Below are positions 10,290-37,232 of a stretch of 64,000 nt of DNA, piece after piece. How positions within the stretch are numbered: position 1 is the stretch's first letter; each line of letters starts with the position of its first letter. Made by a program: the position numbers and the translations under genes. The notes beneath the pieces are model-generated. The model made no database searches and was not told where the DNA came from. It saw only the letters and a list, made by a program, of their open reading frames with translations. The DNA is from Escherichia coli. Lineage in GTDB: Bacteria; Pseudomonadota; Gammaproteobacteria; Enterobacterales; Enterobacteriaceae. The stretch lies in the NCBI RefSeq assembly GCF_030013205.1, contig NZ_CP122648.1; one strand, given 5' to 3'.

Positions 10290-11962
10290 TGGCTGCGCAA
10301 GGGTTCTTACTGATCGCCACGTTTTTACTGGTGTTAATGGTGCTGGCACGTCCTTTAGGCAGCGGGCTGGCGCGGCTGATTAATGACATACCTCTTCCCG
10401 GTACAGCGGGTGTTGAACGCGTACTCTTTCGTTTACCTGGCGTCTCTGACAGTGAGATGAACTGGAAGCAGTATCTCTGTGCCATTCTCGGCCTGAACAT
10501 GCTGGGGCTGGCGGTGCTGTTTTTTATGTTGCTCGGTCAGCACTATCTGCCGCTCAATCCACAGCAGTTGCCAGGGCTGTCATGGGATCTGGCGCTGAAT
10601 ACCGCCGTCAGCTTTGTCACTAATACCAACTGGCAATCTTACAGCGGTGAAACCACGTTGAGCTATTTCAGCCAGATGGCTGGCTTAACGGTGCAAAACT
10701 TTCTTTCTGCCGCCAGCGGGATTGCGGTGATTTTTGCCCTCATACGTGCATTTACCCGCCAGAGCATGAGCACACTCGGGAATGCCTGGGTCGATCTGCT
10801 ACGCATCACGTTATGGGTGCTAGTCCCTGTGGCGTTGTTGATCGCATTGTTTTTTATTCAACAAGGTGCGCTGCAAAACTTTCTGCCCTATCAGGCGGTG
10901 AATACCGTTGAAGGAGCGAAACAGCTGTTACCCATGGGTCCGGTGGCTTCTCAGGAAGCTATCAAGATGCTCGGCACTAACGGTGGTGGCTTCTTTAATG
11001 CCAACTCGTCGCATCCGTTTGAAAACCCAACCGCACTGACCAACTTCGTGCAGATGCTGGCGATCTTTTTGATCCCAACAGCGCTGTGCTTTGCCTTTGG
11101 TGAAGTGGCAGGCGATCGCCGCCAGGGGCGCATGTTGCTGTGGGCGATGTCAGTGATTTTTGTCATCTGCACAGGCGTGGTGATGTGGGCAGAAGTTCAG
11201 GGTAATCCTCATCTGCTGGCGCTGGGTGCGGACAGCAGCATCAATATGGAAGGTAAAGAGAGCCGTTTCGGCGTGCTGGTCAGTAGCCTGTTTGCGGTCG
11301 TGACTACGGCGGCTTCCTGTGGCGCGGTGATTGCGATGCATGATTCGTTTACCGCTCTCGGTGGCATGGTGCCGATGTGGCTGATGCAAATTGGTGAAGT
11401 GGTATTCGGCGGTGTCGGTTCTGGTCTTTACGGCATGATGCTGTTTGTCCTGCTGGCGGTGTTTATTGCCGGGCTGATGATTGGTCGTACACCGGAATAT
11501 CTGGGTAAAAAAATCGACGTACGTGAGATGAAATTGACTGCACTGGCGATTCTGGTTACTCCAACACTGGTGCTGATGGGCGCGGCGCTGGCGATGATGA
11601 CCGACGCCGGACGTAGCGCCATGCTCAACCCTGGCCCGCATGGTTTTAGCGAAGTGCTGTACGCCGTGTCATCCGCCGCTAACAACAACGGCAGCGCCTT
11701 TGCCGGATTAAGCGCCAACTCCCCGTTCTGGAACTGTTTACTGGCGTTCTGCATGTTTGTCGGTCGCTTCGGGGTGATTATCCCGGTGATGGCAATTGCC
11801 GGTTCGCTGGTGAGTAAAAAGAGCCAACCCGCCAGCTCCGGCACGCTGCCAACGCACGGCCCGCTGTTTGTTGGCCTGTTAATCGGCACCGTATTGCTGG
11901 TTGGCGCACTGACCTTTATCCCTGCCCTGGCGCTTGGTCCGGTGGCGGAATATCTCTCCTGA
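10289..11962 (+). CDS. kdpA: KdpA, K+-transporting ATPase K+-binding subunit (557 aa)
   Basis: Track ORF frame; conserved start [19 protein letters not shown]; polytopic membrane protein; operon context. Confidence 0.97.
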
Positions 11963-14041: not shown

Positions 14042-14614
14042 ATGCGTGGATTACGTCCGGCATTATCAACATTTATCTTTCTGTTATTGATCACTGGCGG
14101 CGTTTACCCGCTGCTGACCACCGTGCTGGGGCAATGGTGGTTTCCCTGGCAGGCCAACGGTTCGTTGATTCGTGAAGGTGATACGGTGCGCGGTTCGGTA
14201 TTAATCGGGCAGAATTTTACCGGCAACGGCTATTTTCATGGTCGCCCGTCGGCAACGGCAGAAATGCCCTATAATCCACAGGCTTCTGGCGGGAGCAATC
14301 TGGCGGTCAGTAACCCTGAGCTGGATAAACTAATAGCCGCACGCGTTGCTGCATTACGGGCCGCTAACCCGGATGTCAGTGCGAACGTTCCGGTTGAACT
14401 GGTGACGGCATCGGCAAGCGGACTGGACAATAACATCACCCCGCAAGCGGCAGCCTGGCAGATCCCACGCGTGGCGAAAGCGCGTAATCTCAGCGTTGAA
14501 CAGCTCACGCAGCTGATCGCAAAATACAGCCAACAACCGCTGGTGAAATATATCGGCCAGCCGGTCGTCAACATTGTCGAACTCAATCTGGCGCTGGATA
14601 AACTTGATGAATAA
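14042..14614 (+). CDS. kdpC: KdpC, Kdp ATPase subunit C (190 aa)
   Basis: Track ORF frame trimmed to the conserved start [25 protein letters not shown]. Confidence 0.93.
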
Positions 14615-17291
14615 CGAACCCTTACGTCCCGACCCCGATCGTCTGCTGGAACAAACTGCCGCGCCGCATCGGGGGAAGCTGAAAGTTTTCTTCGGTGCCT
14701 GTGCGGGCGTCGGAAAGACCTGGGCGATGCTGGCAGAAGCCCAGCGACTGCGGGCGCAAGGGCTGGATATTGTGGTTGGCGTGGTTGAAACCCACGGGCG
14801 GAAAGATACCGCCGCAATACTGGAAGGGCTGGCTGTTCTGCCGCCCAAACGCCAGGCGTACCGTGGGCGGCATATCAGCGAATTTGATCTCGATGCCGCC
14901 CTCGCCCGCCGTCCGGCGCTGATCTTAATGGACGAACTGGCGCACAGTAATGCGCCAGGTTCTCGTCATCCTAAACGCTGGCAGGACATCGAAGAGCTGC
15001 TGGAAGCTGGCATTGATGTTTTCACAACCGTCAACGTTCAGCATCTGGAAAGTCTGAATGATGTGGTCAGCGGCGTCACCGGAATTCAGGTACGGGAAAC
15101 CGTGCCCGATCCTTTTTTCGATGCCGCCGACGACGTGGTGCTGGTGGACTTGCCCCCGGACGATCTGCGTCAACGGCTGAAAGAAGGTAAAGTCTATATT
15201 GCCGGGCAGGCGGAACGCGCCATTGAACATTTTTTTCGTAAAGGTAATCTGATCGCCCTGCGCGAACTGGCACTGCGCCGTACTGCCGATCGCGTTGATG
15301 AGCAAATGCGCGCCTGGCGGGGGCATCCTGGCGAAGAGAAAGTCTGGCACACGCGCGACGCGATCCTTTTATGCATCGGGCATAACACCGGCAGCGAAAA
15401 ACTGGTCCGCGCGGCGGCGCGGCTGGCGTCACGGCTGGGAAGCGTCTGGCACGCGGTGTATGTTGAAACCCCTGCCCTGCACCGCTTACCGGAGAAAAAA
15501 CGTCGGGCAATTCTCAGCGCCTTACGTCTGGCGCAGGAGCTGGGCGCAGAGACGGCAACACTTTCTGATCCAGCGGAAGAGAAAGCGGTAGTGCGTTATG
15601 CCCGTGAACATAATCTCGGCAAGATTATTCTCGGTCGCCCAGCCTCGCGCCGCTGGTGGCGTCGGGAAACGTTTGCTGACCGACTGGCGCGCATCGCCCC
15701 CGATCTCGATCAGGTGCTGGTCGCGCTTGATGAACCACCCGTCCGCACGATTAACAACGCGCCGGATAGCCGCTCTTTTAAAGACAAGTGGCGGGTACAG
15801 ATTCAGGGATGCGTGGTTGCCGCCGCGTTATGCGCCGTTATCACCTTAATTGCCATGCAGTGGCTGATGGCGTTTGATGCCGCCAACCTGGTGATGCTGT
15901 ATCTGCTTGGCGTGGTGGTGGTGGCGCTGTTTTATGGACGCTGGCCTTCGGTGGTTGCTACCGTCATTAATGTGGTGAGTTTCGATCTCTTTTTTATCGC
16001 CCCACGCGGCACGCTCGCCGTCTCTGATGTGCAATATCTGCTGACCTTCGCGGTGATGTTAACCGTCGGGCTGGTGATCGGGAACCTTACTGCGGGCGTG
16101 CGTTATCAGGCGCGGGTAGCCCGTTACCGCGAGCAACGCACACGGCACTTATATGAAATGTCGAAAGCACTGGCGGTGGGCCGCAGTCCGCAGGACATCG
16201 CCGCCACCAGCGAACAATTTATTGCCTCCACGTTTCATGCCCGCAGTCAGGTGCTGTTACCCGATGACAACGGTAAATTGCAGCCGTTAACACATCCGCA
16301 AGGAATGACGCCGTGGGACGATGCCATCGCGCAGTGGAGTTTTGATAAAGGCCTGCCTGCGGGCGCGGGCACCGACACGTTACCCGGTGTACCGTACCAG
16401 ATTTTGCCGCTAAAAAGCGGCGAGAAAACCTACGGGCTGGTGGTGGTGGAACCGGGGAATCTGCGCCAGTTGATGATCCCGGAACAGCAACGCCTGCTGG
16501 AGACGTTTACGCTGTTAGTCGCCAATGCCCTTGAGCGGCTGACACTGACCGCCAGCGAAGAACAGGCGCGGATGGCAAGCGAACGAGAACAGATCCGCAA
16601 CGCCCTGCTGGCGGCGCTTTCGCATGATTTACGCACGCCGCTTACGGTGCTGTTCGGTCAGGCAGAAATCTTAACGCTCGATCTGGCGAGCGAAGGATCG
16701 CCCCACGCCCGCCAGGCCAGCGAGATTCGTCAGCATGTGCTGAACACGACCCGACTGGTGAATAATCTACTGGATATGGCGCGAATTCAGTCCGGCGGCT
16801 TTAATTTGAAGAAAGAGTGGTTAACGCTGGAAGAAGTGGTCGGCAGCGCGCTGCAAATGCTGGAACCGGGTTTATCGTCGCCCATCAATCTTTCTCTGCC
16901 AGAACCGCTGACCTTAATCCACGTTGACGGGCCACTCTTTGAACGGGTGCTGATTAATCTGCTGGAGAACGCGGTGAAATACGCGGGTGCGCAGGCCGAA
17001 ATTGGTATCGATGCCCACGTTGAGGGCGAAAATCTACAACTGGATGTCTGGGATAATGGCCCCGGTCTTCCGCCAGGCCAGGAGCAGACGATATTTGATA
17101 AGTTTGCTCGCGGGAATAAAGAGTCGGCGGTACCGGGTGTAGGGCTTGGGCTGGCAATTTGTCGGGCGATTGTGGATGTACACGGCGGCACCATTACCGC
17201 GTTCAACCGACCGGAAGGTGGTGCCTGTTTTCGTGTTACACTTCCCCAGCAAACTGCCCCTGAACTTGAAGAATTTCATGAGGATATGTGA
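14607..17291 (+). CDS. kdpD: KdpD, sensor histidine kinase (894 aa)
   Basis: Track ORF frame trimmed to [16 protein letters not shown]; Walker-like GACAGVGKT in the N-terminal domain, transmembrane segment cluster, HisKA (LSHDLRTPL) and ATPase domains. Confidence 0.96.
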
Positions 17292-17965
17292 CAAACGTTC
17301 TGATTGTTGAAGATGAACAGGCTATTCGTCGCTTTCTGCGCACGGCGCTGGAGGGCGATGGGATGCGCGTCTTTGAGGCCGAAACGCTGCAACGCGGCTT
17401 GCTGGAAGCGGCTACCCGTAAGCCAGATTTGATTATTCTCGATCTCGGCCTGCCCGATGGTGATGGGATTGAGTTTATCCGCGACCTGCGCCAGTGGAGC
17501 GCAGTGCCGGTGATTGTGCTTTCCGCACGTAGCGAAGAGAGCGACAAAATCGCCGCGCTGGATGCCGGAGCGGATGATTATCTGAGTAAGCCGTTTGGCA
17601 TTGGCGAATTGCAGGCCCGTCTGCGCGTCGCATTACGCCGCCACTCTGCCACCACCACGCCCGATCCGCTGGTGAAATTTTCCAATGTTACCGTCGATTT
17701 AGCGGCTCGAGTGATCCATCGCGGTGAGGAAGAGGTGCATCTCACCCCGATTGAGTTCCGCCTGCTGGCGGTGTTGCTTAATAATGCGGGAAAAGTGCTC
17801 ACCCAGCGCCAGCTCCTTAACCAGGTGTGGGGGCCAAACGCGGTCGAACACAGTCATTATTTGCGTATTTATATGGGGCATCTGCGACAAAAACTGGAGC
17901 AAGATCCCGCCCGCCCCCGCCACTTCATTACTGAAACCGGTATTGGGTATCGGTTTATGCTTTAG
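17288..17965 (+). CDS. kdpE: KdpE, OmpR-family response regulator (225 aa)
   Basis: Track [20 protein letters not shown]...; 4-nt overlap with kdpD (atgtga). Confidence 0.97.
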   Translation: MTNVLIVEDEQAIRRFLRTALEGDGMRVFEAETLQRGLLEAATRKPDLIILDLGLPDGDGIEFIRDLRQWSAVPVIVLSARSEESDKIAALDAGADDYLSKPFGIGELQARLRVALRRHSATTTPDPLVKFSNVTVDLAARVIHRGEEEVHLTPIEFRLLAVLLNNAGKVLTQRQLLNQVWGPNAVEHSHYLRIYMGHLRQKLEQDPARPRHFITETGIGYRFML

Positions 17966-17974
17966 GCGGTTAAA

Positions 17975-18078
17975 TGCTGGATCCGGCATGAACGCCTTAT
18001 CCGGCCTACAAAATCTTGTAAATTCAATATATTGCACCATCCTCGCAGGCCTGATAAGCGTAGCGCATCAGGCAGTCA
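17975..18078. repeat. REP/BIME palindromic units in the kdpE-pgm intergenic region
   Basis: Two REP-like imperfect palindromes (ccggcatgaacgccttatccggcctac and gcctgataagcgtagcgcatcaggc). Confidence 0.6.
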
Positions 18079-18084
18079 TAAGTA

Positions 18085-18115
18085 AAAAAGGGCGATCTTC
18101 CGACCGCCCTTTTTC
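18085..18115. terminator. Bidirectional rho-independent terminator between convergent kdpE and pgm
   Basis: Hairpin gggcgatcttccgaccgccc flanked by A-run upstream and T-run downstream. Confidence 0.6.
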
Positions 18116-18128
18116 TTATTTAATGTGT

Positions 18129-19769
18129 TTACGCGTTTTTCAGAACTTCGCTAACAATCTCGACCGCTTCTTTCTCGATCTGCTTGCGATGCTCTTCACC
18201 GAGGAAGCTTTCGCAATAAATCTTGTACGCGTCTTCCGTGCCTGACGGACGCGCGGCGAACCAGCCGTTGTCAGTCATCACTTTCAGACCGCCGATAGAA
18301 GCACCGTTGCCAGGCGCAGCGGTCAGGCGCGCGGTGATCGGGTCACCTGCCAGGGTGCTGGCGCTCACCATTTCCGGAGACAGTTTAGACAGCGCCGCTT
18401 TTTGTGCGGAAGTCGCGGCTGCCTGCAAACGGTTGTAGCTCGGCGCACCAAAGCGTTTTGCCAGTTCGTTGTAGTGTTCCTGCGGGTTCTTACCGGTGAC
18501 CGCGGTGATTTCTGCCGCCAGCAGACACATAATGATACCGTCTTTATCGGTTGACCACGGCGTGCCGTCGAAACGCAGGAAGGAAGCCCCTGCGCTCTCT
18601 TCGCCGCCAAAGCCGAAGCTGCCGTCGAACAGACCATCAACAAACCATTTGAAACCTACCGGGACTTCTACCAGCTTACGGCCCAAGTCATTGACCACAC
18701 GGTCGATCATCGCAGATGAAACCAGCGTTTTACCGACAGCAACATCTTTGCCCCACTGCGGACGGTGCTGGAACAGGTAGTTGATCGCCACCGCCAGGTA
18801 GTGGTTCGGATTCATCAAACCTGCCGGAGTGACGATACCGTGACGGTCATAATCCGGGTCGTTAGCAAACGCCAGATCGAACTTATCACGCAGTGCCAGC
18901 AGACCCGCCATCGCACACTCGGAGGAGCAGTCCATACGGATCGCACCGTCTTTATCGAGGTGCATAAAGCGGAAGGTTTGATCGACCTGATCGTTAACGA
19001 TGGTCAGGTTGAGATTGTAATACTCGCCAATGCGCTTCCAGTATTCGATACCGGAACCACCCAGCGGATCAACGCCCAGCGTCAGGCCCGCTTTCTGAAT
19101 CGCCGCCATATCAACGATATCGGCCAGACCTTCCACAAACGGCTGCACCAGATCCTGCTCTTTCACATGACCGGATGCCATCGCTTCGTCGAGGGAGATA
19201 CGCTTCACGCCTTTCAGGCCATCAGCCATCAGTGCGTTGGCCCTGTCTTCCACCACTTTAGTGACGTTGGTATCAGCCGGGCCACCATTTGGCGGATTGT
19301 ACTTGATACCACCATCTTCCGGCGGGTTATGAGACGGTGTAATCACGATACCGTCTGCCAGCGGGCCACCTTTTTTATTGTGAACCAGGATGGCATTGGA
19401 AACGGCAGGCGTCGGGGTGAAGCCATTGTTTTCCTGCACAATGACATCAACGCCATTCGCTGCCAGCACTTCCAGTACGGAAATGAACGCAGGCTCGGAC
19501 AGGGCGTGAGTATCTTTACCCACATAGCAAGGGCCAGTGATGCCGTTTTTCGCACGTTCTTCAGCAATTGCCTGAGCGATCGCCAGAATGTGCGGCTCGT
19601 TAAAGCTGTGGCGCGCTGCACTGCCACGGTGACCGGAAGTACCGAATTTCACCGCGTGCTCCGCATTCCCTGCTTCTGGTTTCAGTACATAATATTGCGC
19701 CGTCAGTTGGGCGACGTTAATCAAATCACTCTGTTGTGCAGGTTGGCCTGCACGATTGTGGATTGCCAT
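18129..19769 (-). CDS. pgm: Phosphoglucomutase (546 aa)
   Basis: Track ORF frame trimmed to conserved start [16 protein letters not shown]; phosphohexomutase motifs ([20 protein letters not shown]). Confidence 0.96.
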
Positions 19770-19794: not shown

Positions 19795-20340
19795 TTAGAT
19801 AGTTCCGCAAACCTTCTCAATCAATTCCGCCGGGAATTGCATCGACTGCATGATGTGTTCGATCATGCTGCATTTACGGCCGGTGTTGGTATTGGTGATC
19901 ACCCAATATGGCGTGCCTGGCACATGTTTCGGCTTGGTCTGATTACCATTTTTCAGCAGCGTTTGTTCATCTGCCGCAAAGTAAACGCGTGTACGACCGT
20001 GCAACGATTCCGTTGCTTCGGCAAACGCCTGGGCGTCAAGAGAATATAGTGTAGACAACAGCAGCATAAAGCGATTGACCGCTCGCTTTTGCTCTGCGTA
20101 TTCATCCGAAAGCAGAAGTTCACGCATTGCGCGAACCTTGTCTTTAATCGTTTTGACCGGCTTCGCTTCGACGATAGCAGGTGACGCAACGCGAACCTCT
20201 TTCGTCACCGGAGCAGCAGGCTGTGATGCGGCGGAAAATTTCAACATACGCCGTAAAATGTCGGATGCGCTCTCGCCGATATGCTTAGTGTGGCTGGCAA
20301 TATAGCTGTAGAGTTCATCATCAACTTCAATCGTTTTCAT
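19795..20340 (-). CDS. seqA: SeqA, negative modulator of replication initiation (181 aa)
   Basis: Track ORF frame trimmed to [33 protein letters not shown]. Confidence 0.95.
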
Positions 20341-25349: not shown

Positions 25350-26052
25350 TAAATATCCTCCGGCATAGCCGGAGGTTTTTCAAATGCGCCTATAAGGCTC
25401 TCTTACCAGCCGCGCCCTAACAGGCGCACACGATCTGACATTTGCATCCAACTTCGTTACTTACGGCCCGTAAACGGGCTGCCCGGATAGGGAATCGATA
25501 ACTGCTCTCCCATTTTATCCTCTTCAAGCTGGTGCTTTATGTAATCCTGTATCTTCGCCGTGTTCTTACCCACCGTATCGACGTAGTACCCTCTGCACCA
25601 GAACTCTCTGTTCCTGTATTTGAATTTCAAATCACCAAACTGCTCGTAAAGCATCAGACTGCTTTTCCCTTTCAGATATCCCATAAAGCCGGATACGCTC
25701 ATTTTGGGCGGGATCTCCACAAGCATATGGATATGATCTGCACAGCATTCAGCTTCAAGAATCCGTACGCTTTTCCACTCACACAGCTTTCTCAAAATAC
25801 TGCCTATTGCTCTACGCTTCTCTCTGTAGAACACTTGTCTTCGGTATTTTGGCGCAAAAACTATGTGATATTTACAGTTCCATCGGGTGTGCGCTAAGCT
25901 CTTTTCGTTCCCCATTGGGACCCCCTTTTGATTTCTTGTTTGACACTTGCAGTTGCCAGACCGCAAGGTGTTTTAACAAATCAAAAGGGGTTTTAATAAC
26001 TGGCTCAAAGCTGAAAGCTTTCCGGAACCCCCAGCCTAGCTGGGGGTTTTCT
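25350..26052 (-). mobile_element. IS200 (IS200/IS605 family, about 0.7 kb) inserted between chiP and glnS; boundaries approximate
   Basis: Contains an IS200-type tnpA plus hairpins near both ends (26026..26048 aacccccagcctagctgggggtt; 25357..25375 cctccggcatagccggagg); no IS of this kind at this position in K-12 as I recall. Confidence 0.7.
25457..25915 (-). CDS. tnpA: IS200 transposase TnpA (Y1/HUH family, 152 aa)
   Basis: Track ORF frame trimmed to MGNEKSLAHTRWNCKYHIVFAPKYRRQVFY...; matches IS200 TnpA as I remember it, including the HIH motif (ADHIHML) and catalytic Tyr region. Confidence 0.9.
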   Translation of the reverse strand: MGNEKSLAHTRWNCKYHIVFAPKYRRQVFYREKRRAIGSILRKLCEWKSVRILEAECCADHIHMLVEIPPKMSVSGFMGYLKGKSSLMLYEQFGDLKFKYRNREFWCRGYYVDTVGKNTAKIQDYIKHQLEEDKMGEQLSIPYPGSPFTGRK

Positions 26053-36636: not shown

Positions 36637-36713
36637 GGCTACGTAGCTCAGTTGGTTAGAGCACATCACTCATAATGATGGGGTCACAGGTTCGAATCCC
36701 GTCGTAGCCACCA
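36637..36713 (+). tRNA. metT: tRNA-Met (elongator, anticodon CAU)
   Basis: 77-nt sequence GGCTACGTAGCTCAGTTGGTTAGAGCACATCACTCATAATGATGGGGTCACAGGTTCGAATCCCGTCGTAGCCACCA; cloverleaf with CCA end. Confidence 0.93.
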
Positions 36714-36721
36714 TCTTTTTT

Positions 36722-36806
36722 GCGGGAGTGGCGAAATTGGTAGACGCACCAGATTTAGGTTCTGGCGCCGCAAGGTGTGCGAGTTCAAGTCTCGCCTCCC
36801 GCACCA
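36722..36806 (+). tRNA. leuW: tRNA-Leu (anticodon UAG)
   Basis: 85-nt GCGGGAGTGGCGAAATTGGTAGACGCACCAGATTTAGGTTCTGGCGCCGCAAGGTGTGCGAGTTCAAGTCTCGCCTCCCGCACCA with long variable arm. Confidence 0.93.
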
Positions 36807-36829
36807 TTCACCAGAAAGCGTTGTACGGA

Positions 36830-36904
36830 TGGGGTATCGCCAAGCGGTAAGGCACCGGTTTTTGATACCGGCATTCCCTGGTTCGAATCCAGGTACCCCA
36901 GCCA
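36830..36904 (+). tRNA. glnU: tRNA-Gln (anticodon UUG)
   Basis: 75-nt TGGGGTATCGCCAAGCGGTAAGGCACCGGTTTTTGATACCGGCATTCCCTGGTTCGAATCCAGGTACCCCAGCCA. Confidence 0.93.
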
Positions 36905-36938
36905 TATTCTTCGAGTAAGCGGTTCACCGCCCGGTTAT

Positions 36939-37013
36939 TGGGGTATCGCCAAGCGGTAAGGCACCGGTTTTTGATACCGGCATTCCCTGGTTCGAATCCA
37001 GGTACCCCAGCCA
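36939..37013 (+). tRNA. glnW: tRNA-Gln (anticodon UUG), second copy
   Basis: Identical 75-nt sequence to the preceding tRNA-Gln(UUG). Confidence 0.93.
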
Positions 37014-37028
37014 TCGAAGAAACAATCT

Positions 37029-37105
37029 GGCTACGTAGCTCAGTTGGTTAGAGCACATCACTCATAATGATGGGGTCACAGGTTCGAATCCCGTCGTAGC
37101 CACCA
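37029..37105 (+). tRNA. metU: tRNA-Met (elongator, anticodon CAU), second copy
   Basis: Identical 77-nt sequence to metT. Confidence 0.93.
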
Positions 37106-37153
37106 AATTCTGAATGTGTCGAATATGTTCGGCAAATTCAAAAACCAATTTGT

Positions 37154-37228
37154 TGGGGTATCGCCAAGCGGTAAGGCACCGGATTCTGATTCCGGCATTC
37201 CGAGGTTCGAATCCTCGTACCCCAGCCA
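37154..37228 (+). tRNA. glnV: tRNA-Gln (anticodon CUG)
   Basis: 75-nt TGGGGTATCGCCAAGCGGTAAGGCACCGGATTCTGATTCCGGCATTCCGAGGTTCGAATCCTCGTACCCCAGCCA; only one CUG copy present. Confidence 0.9.
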
Positions 37229-37232
37229 CATT

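Follow-up and report, generated by a model that had tools for sequence, protein, structure and literature searches.

The 64,000 nucleotides of E. coli DNA analysed here, henceforth referred to as the window, contain the kdpD and kdpE genes of the kdpFABCDE operon facing the genes seqA and pgm. The kdpD sensor kinase gene (positions 14607–17291, + strand), annotated by RefSeq and matching the NCBIfam KdpD equivalog with 1835 bits, lies upstream of kdpE (17288–17965, + strand), which encodes an intact response regulator of 225 aa with a full-length match to the NCBIfam KdpE equivalog (486 bits) and ends in a TAG stop codon. The convergent gene is pgm (18129–19769, − strand), encoding an intact phosphoglucomutase of 546 aa (full-length TIGR01132 match, 1074 bits), and upstream of pgm on the same strand lies seqA (19795–20340, − strand), identified by RefSeq annotation and tblastn. 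The original prediction, made from the sequence alone, held that kdpE and pgm are directly convergent and that only about 160 bp of REP/BIME sequence and a bidirectional terminator separate them. In the RefSeq annotation of the source genome the two genes are indeed adjacent, at exactly these coordinates, and the spacer (17966–18128) is 163 bp long and contains a BIME-type inverted REP pair and one hairpin. A 1.5-kb query across the junction matched E. coli O139:H1 strain W13-16 (NZ_CP080235.1) at 100%. This strain is an ST1, chuA-positive STEC/ETEC hybrid from wild boar whose genome was closed with PacBio (PMC8798679).

The spacer begins with a stretch of about 10 nt between the kdpE stop codon and the first REP element, GCGGTTAAAT (17966–17975), which is the sole part of the spacer without a counterpart in K-12. 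It is followed by a degenerate REP element of the Y type (17976–18009, + strand), which is both the junction repeat and the left BIME arm and matches 31 of 34 positions (three mismatches) of the sequence that we take to be the REP-Y consensus. A 37-nt linker (18010–18046) then leads to a REP element of the Z2 type (18047–18073, − strand), which matches its consensus at 27 of 27 positions, is inverted relative to REP-Y and forms the right arm of the BIME. The linker carries a candidate IHF-like site, ATTCAATATATTG, at 18022–18034, with one mismatch to the consensus WATCAANNNNTTR as read from the sequence. The two REP arms are complementary, with inverted repeat I2 pairing 17996–18007 with 18047–18058. 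REP-Y and REP-Z2 occur in one copy each in the 64-kb window and were absent from 100 shuffles (0 expected), and the whole spacer is more stable on folding than its shuffles (z = −4.0).

BIME-1/RIP (RIB) elements, known from the work of Gilson, Bachellier, Oppenheim, Boccard and Prentki, consist of REP-Y, an L linker with an IHF site and an inverted REP-Z2. The layout of the spacer suggests a BIME-1-like element, since it shares with this family both REP types in inverted orientation, has a linker of ~37 nt with the candidate IHF-like site, and is likewise extragenic, located between convergent genes and adjoining a terminator. It departs from the family in its degenerate REP-Y, with three mismatches, and in the single mismatch of its IHF-like site. 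By analogy with known BIME-1/RIP elements, IHF would bind at the linker, and the BIME may stabilise transcript 3′ ends. No distinct RNA gene was found in the spacer by Rfam, which gave sub-threshold, REP-derived matches only (ES036/CssrF, naRNA4, STnc430 and MicX). The ES036/CssrF match, at 18010–18052 in the linker, scored 34.5 bits, below the gathering threshold of 37.6, and places the linker in a repeated family; weak matches to the REP-derived naRNA4 fell on the REP-Z2 stretch.

Next to the BIME, a G+C-rich inverted repeat (I1, 18085–18114), composed of A6, the stem GGGCGATC/GACCGCCC and T5, is predicted to act as a bidirectional intrinsic terminator. It is 14 nt away from the stop codon of pgm and 119 nt from that of kdpE; on each strand, a G+C-rich stem-loop with a U-run follows the stop codon. 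Folding of the hairpin yielded −17.3 kcal/mol for the + strand and −22.8 kcal/mol for the − strand (z = −5.6 and −6.0, respectively), and the same hairpin is located 3′ of pgm in K-12, NU14, O157 and E69. A simple terminator scan did not report 18085–18114 and returned only a doubtful site inside kdpE; we think that the hairpin was missed owing to the loop-length limit of the scan. The kdpFABCDE and seqA-pgm operons stand tail to tail and would both end at this common predicted terminator.

Comparison with K-12 and the missing speFL-speF-potE cassette

The K-12 gene order assumed in the original prediction was checked in strain BW25113 and was right. In this genome kdpE is followed by speFL, speF, potE, a winged helix-turn-helix fragment, the DUF2625 pseudogene ybfG, the lipoprotein gene ybfP and pgm, and the distance between the kdpE and pgm stop codons is 5857 bp. 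The products of speFL-speF-potE are an ornithine-sensing leader peptide, an acid-inducible ornithine decarboxylase and a putrescine/ornithine antiporter. The window resembles K-12 in its flanks, where kdpD/E, pgm and seqA are 96–99.6% identical, and in the BIME and terminator beside pgm, but it is without the 5.7 kb that K-12 has between the kdpE stop codon and REP-Y. Along the window, similarity to K-12 breaks off at the kdpE stop codon and is found again from about 17975, a single base short of REP-Y; in megablast searches, the homology to K-12-type genomes started at query position 676, which corresponds to window position 17975. The matching REP-Y of K-12 sits between ybfP and pgm. Resumption of homology at REP-Y in the alignment with K-12 upheld the proposal that the REP cluster marks the junction.

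K-12 also has two features that the window does not, namely a second copy of the terminator and, downstream of potE, a 145-nt copy of the kdpE 3′ end (kdpE′), so that speFL-speF-potE in K-12 lies between direct repeats. The copy is 90% identical to kdpE (7499–7643 against 3164–3308 in the K-12 locus, L002; 4335 bp apart). RefSeq labels it a pseudogene of a winged helix-turn-helix domain-containing protein, missing the N-terminus, and this unnamed pseudogene is accounted for by duplication of the 3′ end of kdpE. None of the other kdpE-pgm loci compared contained a kdpE′ copy, and in genomes without the K-12-type allele the kdpE′ query segment matched only kdpE itself, at 88–91%. Immediately upstream of kdpE′, the sequence found ahead of the pgm-side REP occurs a second time and is followed by a REP fragment. 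Judged from this order of segments, the K-12 locus looks like a cassette-bearing allele that was joined, at the REP fragment, to kdpE position −145 of a cassette-less ybfG-ybfP allele. Comparison did not link kdpE′ to one class of kdpE alleles: the copy is 87–91% identical to all E. coli alleles compared and ends in TGA like the cassette-bearing ones.

No tblastn match to K-12 SpeF, PotE, SpeFL, YbfG or YbfP was obtained in the 64-kb window. The remainder of the genome was covered with a chimeric query, in which 4 kb of the window's kdp genes were coupled to reverse-complemented K-12 speF-potE, such that the number of matching places per genome exposes any second speF-potE locus. The source genome ranked first with this query. 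W13-16 and its 17–18 clone-mates each showed one matching place, corresponding to the kdp part, and no divergent second speF-potE place was present in W13-16. Of the three replicons of W13-16, one chromosome and two plasmids, the chromosome was covered and was devoid of speF-potE at the sensitivity of megablast (at least ~80% nucleotide identity); across the collection, only 2 of 5407 speF-potE places were on plasmids. At this sensitivity, speFL-speF-potE is absent from the chromosome, as are ybfG and ybfP. The original prediction had considered the ornithine decarboxylase/putrescine antiporter module to be missing or elsewhere and had suggested a whole-genome search for speF/potE; the single kdp place that this search returned for the W13-16 chromosome indicates that the module is missing and has not moved.

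The strain has neither the SpeFL leader nor the acid-inducible decarboxylase and antiporter and should therefore be negative for inducible ornithine decarboxylase. W13-16 would be without the inducible system for ornithine-dependent acid stress and putrescine export, and is predicted to depend on the constitutive (speC) pathway. A comparable case is the loss of the cadBA lysine decarboxylase/antiporter in Shigella and EIEC, which Maurelli et al. reportedly described as pathoadaptive in 1998. Both cases concern an acid-inducible amino-acid decarboxylase and antiporter pair missing in pathogenic lineages, and the cassette-less lineages include the O139:H1 edema-disease clone and O145:H28 STEC. 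Unlike the loss of cadBA, nothing ties the loss of speF-potE to virulence, and the locus is a clean allele without disruption by IS elements or prophage. The absence bears on ornithine-decarboxylase phenotyping, on models of acid stress and polyamines that are based on K-12, and on pangenome metabolic reconstructions. Its weight is modest, as thinking on how these systems work is unchanged.

Alleles of the kdpE-pgm slot

Among 5426 complete E. coli genomes, speF-potE was matched in 5131, with at least 80% coverage in 5038, and 295 genomes gave no match at all. Four alleles of the slot were distinguished. The K-12 type with the kdpE′ copy (F1) was present in 1764 of the 5426 genomes, and the arrangement kdpE-speFL-speF-potE-pgm of NU14 and O157:H7 (F2) in about 3270, a count obtained by subtraction from the speF-potE census. 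The two cassette-less alleles are kdpE-BIME-ybfP-BIME-pgm, as in strain 300033 (F3; at least 246 genomes), and the kdpE-BIME-pgm arrangement of the window (F4; 115 genomes), which is the shortest of the four. Independently of allele assignment, kdpE and pgm were within ~1–1.25 kb of each other in 335–353 genomes, in agreement with F3 and F4 taken together. About 6% of complete E. coli genomes have a cassette-less kdpE-pgm locus.

Carriers of the F4 allele comprise 18 pig or wild-boar genomes at 100%, the O145:H28 STEC lineage, MS 69-1, strain 4621 and O18ac:H14, as well as commensal, environmental and ExPEC isolates. The sequence TAG-GCGGTTAAATGCTGGATCCGGC... following kdpE is common to O139:H1, O145:NM and strain 4621, while the 301-bp junction regions of these three differ by 2.7–4.7%. 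In an alignment of 13 kdpE 3′ ends, the kdpE stop codon was TAG in all cassette-less Escherichia alleles examined and TGA in the cassette-bearing ones. A representative of a divergent Escherichia species (L005; ~94% kdpD identity) displayed the same series of TAG, REP-Y, linker, REP-Z2 and terminator. This architecture together with the TAG codon shared with F3 and F4, set against the TGA of cassette-bearing alleles and kdpE′, supports one old cassette-less allele held in common.

We place the probability of the overall account, with the window carrying the shortest of four alleles of the kdpE-pgm slot that segregate naturally in E. coli, at roughly 0.8. The locus in the window is not a simple deletion from K-12 but one of these segregating alleles, and the feature is an ordinary gene-content polymorphism of a well-known kind, with REP elements at the breakpoint, of which it provides a clean example. 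A literature search returned no paper describing a polymorphism of kdpE-pgm/speF-potE.

The junction in the window can be compared with the F3 allele of strain 300033 (L003), in which ybfP lies between two identical 36-nt copies of REP-Y that are 647 bp apart. The window REP-Y aligns with both of these copies, and in the alignment the window spacer equals the F3 left flank, one REP-Y and the F3 right flank. As far as can be read from these sequences, the F4 junction is the signature of REP-REP recombination when compared with F3. The last step would be recombination between the direct REP-Y copies, removing ybfP from kdpE-BIME-ybfP-BIME-pgm. Over the ~30 nt of left flank and REP-Y, about nine positions differ between the window and the sequenced ybfP allele, so the event would be old and the window form would not be a recent derivative of that particular allele. 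REP sequences were reportedly observed at the join points of duplications and deletions by Shyamala et al. in 1990. The junction in the window resembles such REP-mediated rearrangements in having a single REP where the longer allele has two direct REP copies flanking extra DNA; it differs from them in that the event is deduced from natural alleles that have diverged since, and may have been either a deletion or an insertion of ybfP.

Several further observations concern the cassette-bearing genomes. In the F2 loci of NU14 (L084, 6516–6571) and O157:H7 (L085, 6516–6571) the gap between potE and pgm is only 56 bp; the potE and pgm terminators appear fused at a common AAAAAAGGGCGATC, the BIME is gone and no REP is left. 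Both terminator copies are present in E69 and in K-12, where they are 31 nt long and 81% identical. Within E. coli speF is unusually divergent, K-12 being 92.5% identical to NU14 and 94.2% to O157, compared with 97.5% and 99.1% for potE and 97.0% and 98.6% for kdpD. Identity of speF-potE to K-12 fell into three bands, with 1418 genomes at 99% or above, 1787 at 95–99% and 1846 at 90–95%, and in 81 records the best speF-potE match was only 60–80% identical. Some genomes without the native cassette (for example 118UI, EC1 and SCU-482, with two places) have a second, much more divergent speF-potE match elsewhere, which may represent a xenologous decarboxylase/antiporter pair. A set of genomes (hits H67–H69 and H375–H378) matched K-12 speF-potE at 99.9% identity and 94% coverage in two pieces, are annotated only as "ornithine decarboxylase" and look like ~230-bp internal deletions of speF; in others (H70) only a 306-bp N-terminal stub of speF is kept. 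These deletions and stubs fit a pangenome study in which speF is among the most frequently pseudogenised metabolic genes (PMC13322260).

Beyond E. coli, a scan for KdpE in one genome per GTDB species of Enterobacterales yielded 80 loci, which were sorted by tblastn. Direct convergence of kdpE and pgm, with gaps of 36–616 bp, was the commonest order (33 of 80 loci). It was seen in all Pantoea loci, Erwinia (L077), Dickeya, one Serratia (L070) and Buttiauxella, and also in Citrobacter youngae, Enterobacter asburiae and Phytobacter diazotrophicus. Given these 33 loci, direct convergence is widespread and probably the ancestral order. The cassette speFL-speF-potE occupied the gap in 26 loci, from E. 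albertii, Salmonella arizonae, Kluyvera, Lelliottia, Cedecea, Atlantibacter and some Citrobacter and Enterobacter; three loci had speF without potE, seven held other inserts and 11 were uninformative. The kdpE-pgm gap is a plastic, general slot for accessory genes.

The contents of individual slots varied. In Pseudocitrobacter faecalis (L025, 3251–5404) and Enterobacter sp. kpr-6 (L035, 10943–13096) a speF-like gene, 81–82% identical to K-12 SpeF at the amino acid level, lies between kdpE and pgm, and no potE and no speFL match was found with it at these two loci. The gap of Entomohabitans teleogrylli (L048, 10687–18076) holds 7.5 kb of unrelated cargo, comprising an ABC transporter, an Asp/Glu racemase, a PLP enzyme, a LysR regulator and an adenine-deaminase-like amidohydrolase. 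A PadR-family regulator occupies the gap of four Serratia loci (L068, L071, L074 and L081, at ~10690–11650), and L062 contains unrelated cargo as well.

Origin of the cassette-less allele

The speF/potE alleles of E. coli form a cluster at 92–99% identity and are 87–89% identical to E. albertii and the E69 lineage and 79–83% identical to Salmonella/Citrobacter. These identities are comparable to those of the flanking genes over the same distances, which favours one old insertion and later losses over repeated insertion. The cassette would have been inherited vertically in the Escherichia/Salmonella/Citrobacter group and lost long ago from the slot in one Escherichia lineage. Such a loss within Escherichia is, in our judgement, rather probable. 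The cassette-less allele would then have been maintained and exchanged among lineages through homologous recombination in the conserved kdpE and pgm flanks. Sliding-window identities vary along the flanks in a mosaic manner and show no grouping by allele type, a pattern that fits either a single origin or recombinational spread; because the flanks are mosaic, spread by homologous recombination is likely rather than demonstrated.

Alternatively, the empty slot could be a retained ancestral state, the lineage never having received speFL-speF-potE and other E. coli having acquired it later. Such retention would agree with direct convergence being the commonest order across the 80 loci, universal in Pantoea and seen in Erwinia, Dickeya, one Serratia and Buttiauxella, with the cassette-less junction that the window has in common with the divergent Escherichia representative, and with the kdpE′ copy of K-12, which shows that the cassette was joined to a cassette-less allele at least once. 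Yet E. albertii, the E69 lineage, Salmonella and several Citrobacter carry the cassette at this same site, and its divergence roughly tracks species distances, as expected from one old insertion with losses. Furthermore, the spacer consists of REP elements that are repeated across E. coli chromosomes and is not a sequence common with outgroup spacers. We regard retention of the ancestral state as improbable, and loss of the cassette within Escherichia remains the preferred account.

Two explanations that would confine the junction to this clone or to its assembly fare worse, since the same junction bases in diverged genomes, 115 in number, argue against both to the point of ruling them out. 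A deletion that arose recently, and directly, from a K-12-like or B2-like arrangement and is confined to the O139:H1 (ST1) edema-disease clone would account for all 18 genomes at ~100% identity being from pigs or wild boar, and REP elements are known substrates of rearrangement. The junction bases recur, however, in O145:H28 STEC, MS 69-1, strain 4621 and O18ac:H14, the junction regions of carriers diverge by 2–5%, and the divergent Escherichia representative has the same architecture, leaving a private deletion a very slim chance. The original prediction had itself named an assembly error as a possible refutation. Such an artefact would be the loss of 5.7 kb through collapse of the assembly across REP repeats, and short reads can make REP regions difficult to assemble. 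This concern was not borne out, given that 18 complete genomes sequenced independently of one another have an identical junction, the architecture recurs in the 115 carriers and speF-potE is absent from the whole W13-16 chromosome rather than from this place only. W13-16 was, in addition, closed with PacBio (PMC8798679), and the chance of an artefact is practically negligible.

Tentatively, and with the odds against it, the slot could harbour an ancient cross-species polymorphism for presence or absence of the cassette. Niche-dependent selection would maintain both states in Escherichia and likewise in Citrobacter, Enterobacter and Phytobacter, and recombination in the conserved flanks would shuttle the alleles between lineages. 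The kdpE′ copy of K-12 would then be a fossil of re-acquisition, left when a cassette-bearing allele was fused illegitimately, at a REP fragment, with a cassette-less ybfG-ybfP one.

Other features of the window

Positions 1–9700 of the window contain an rhsC-type region beside ybfA with a 4.2-kb RHS core gene, after which follow IS630, ISAs1 and IS1 fragments, orphan RHS C-terminal tips and a DUF6258 gene. An IS200C-family tnpA (25457–25915, − strand) lies between glnS and chiP and is absent from the K-12 locus. The tRNA cluster beside asnB (36638–37229) has six annotated genes (Met, Leu, Gln, Gln, Met and Gln). The corresponding K-12 cluster presumably has seven genes, four of them for tRNA-Gln, and one tRNA-Gln copy may be missing in the window cluster.
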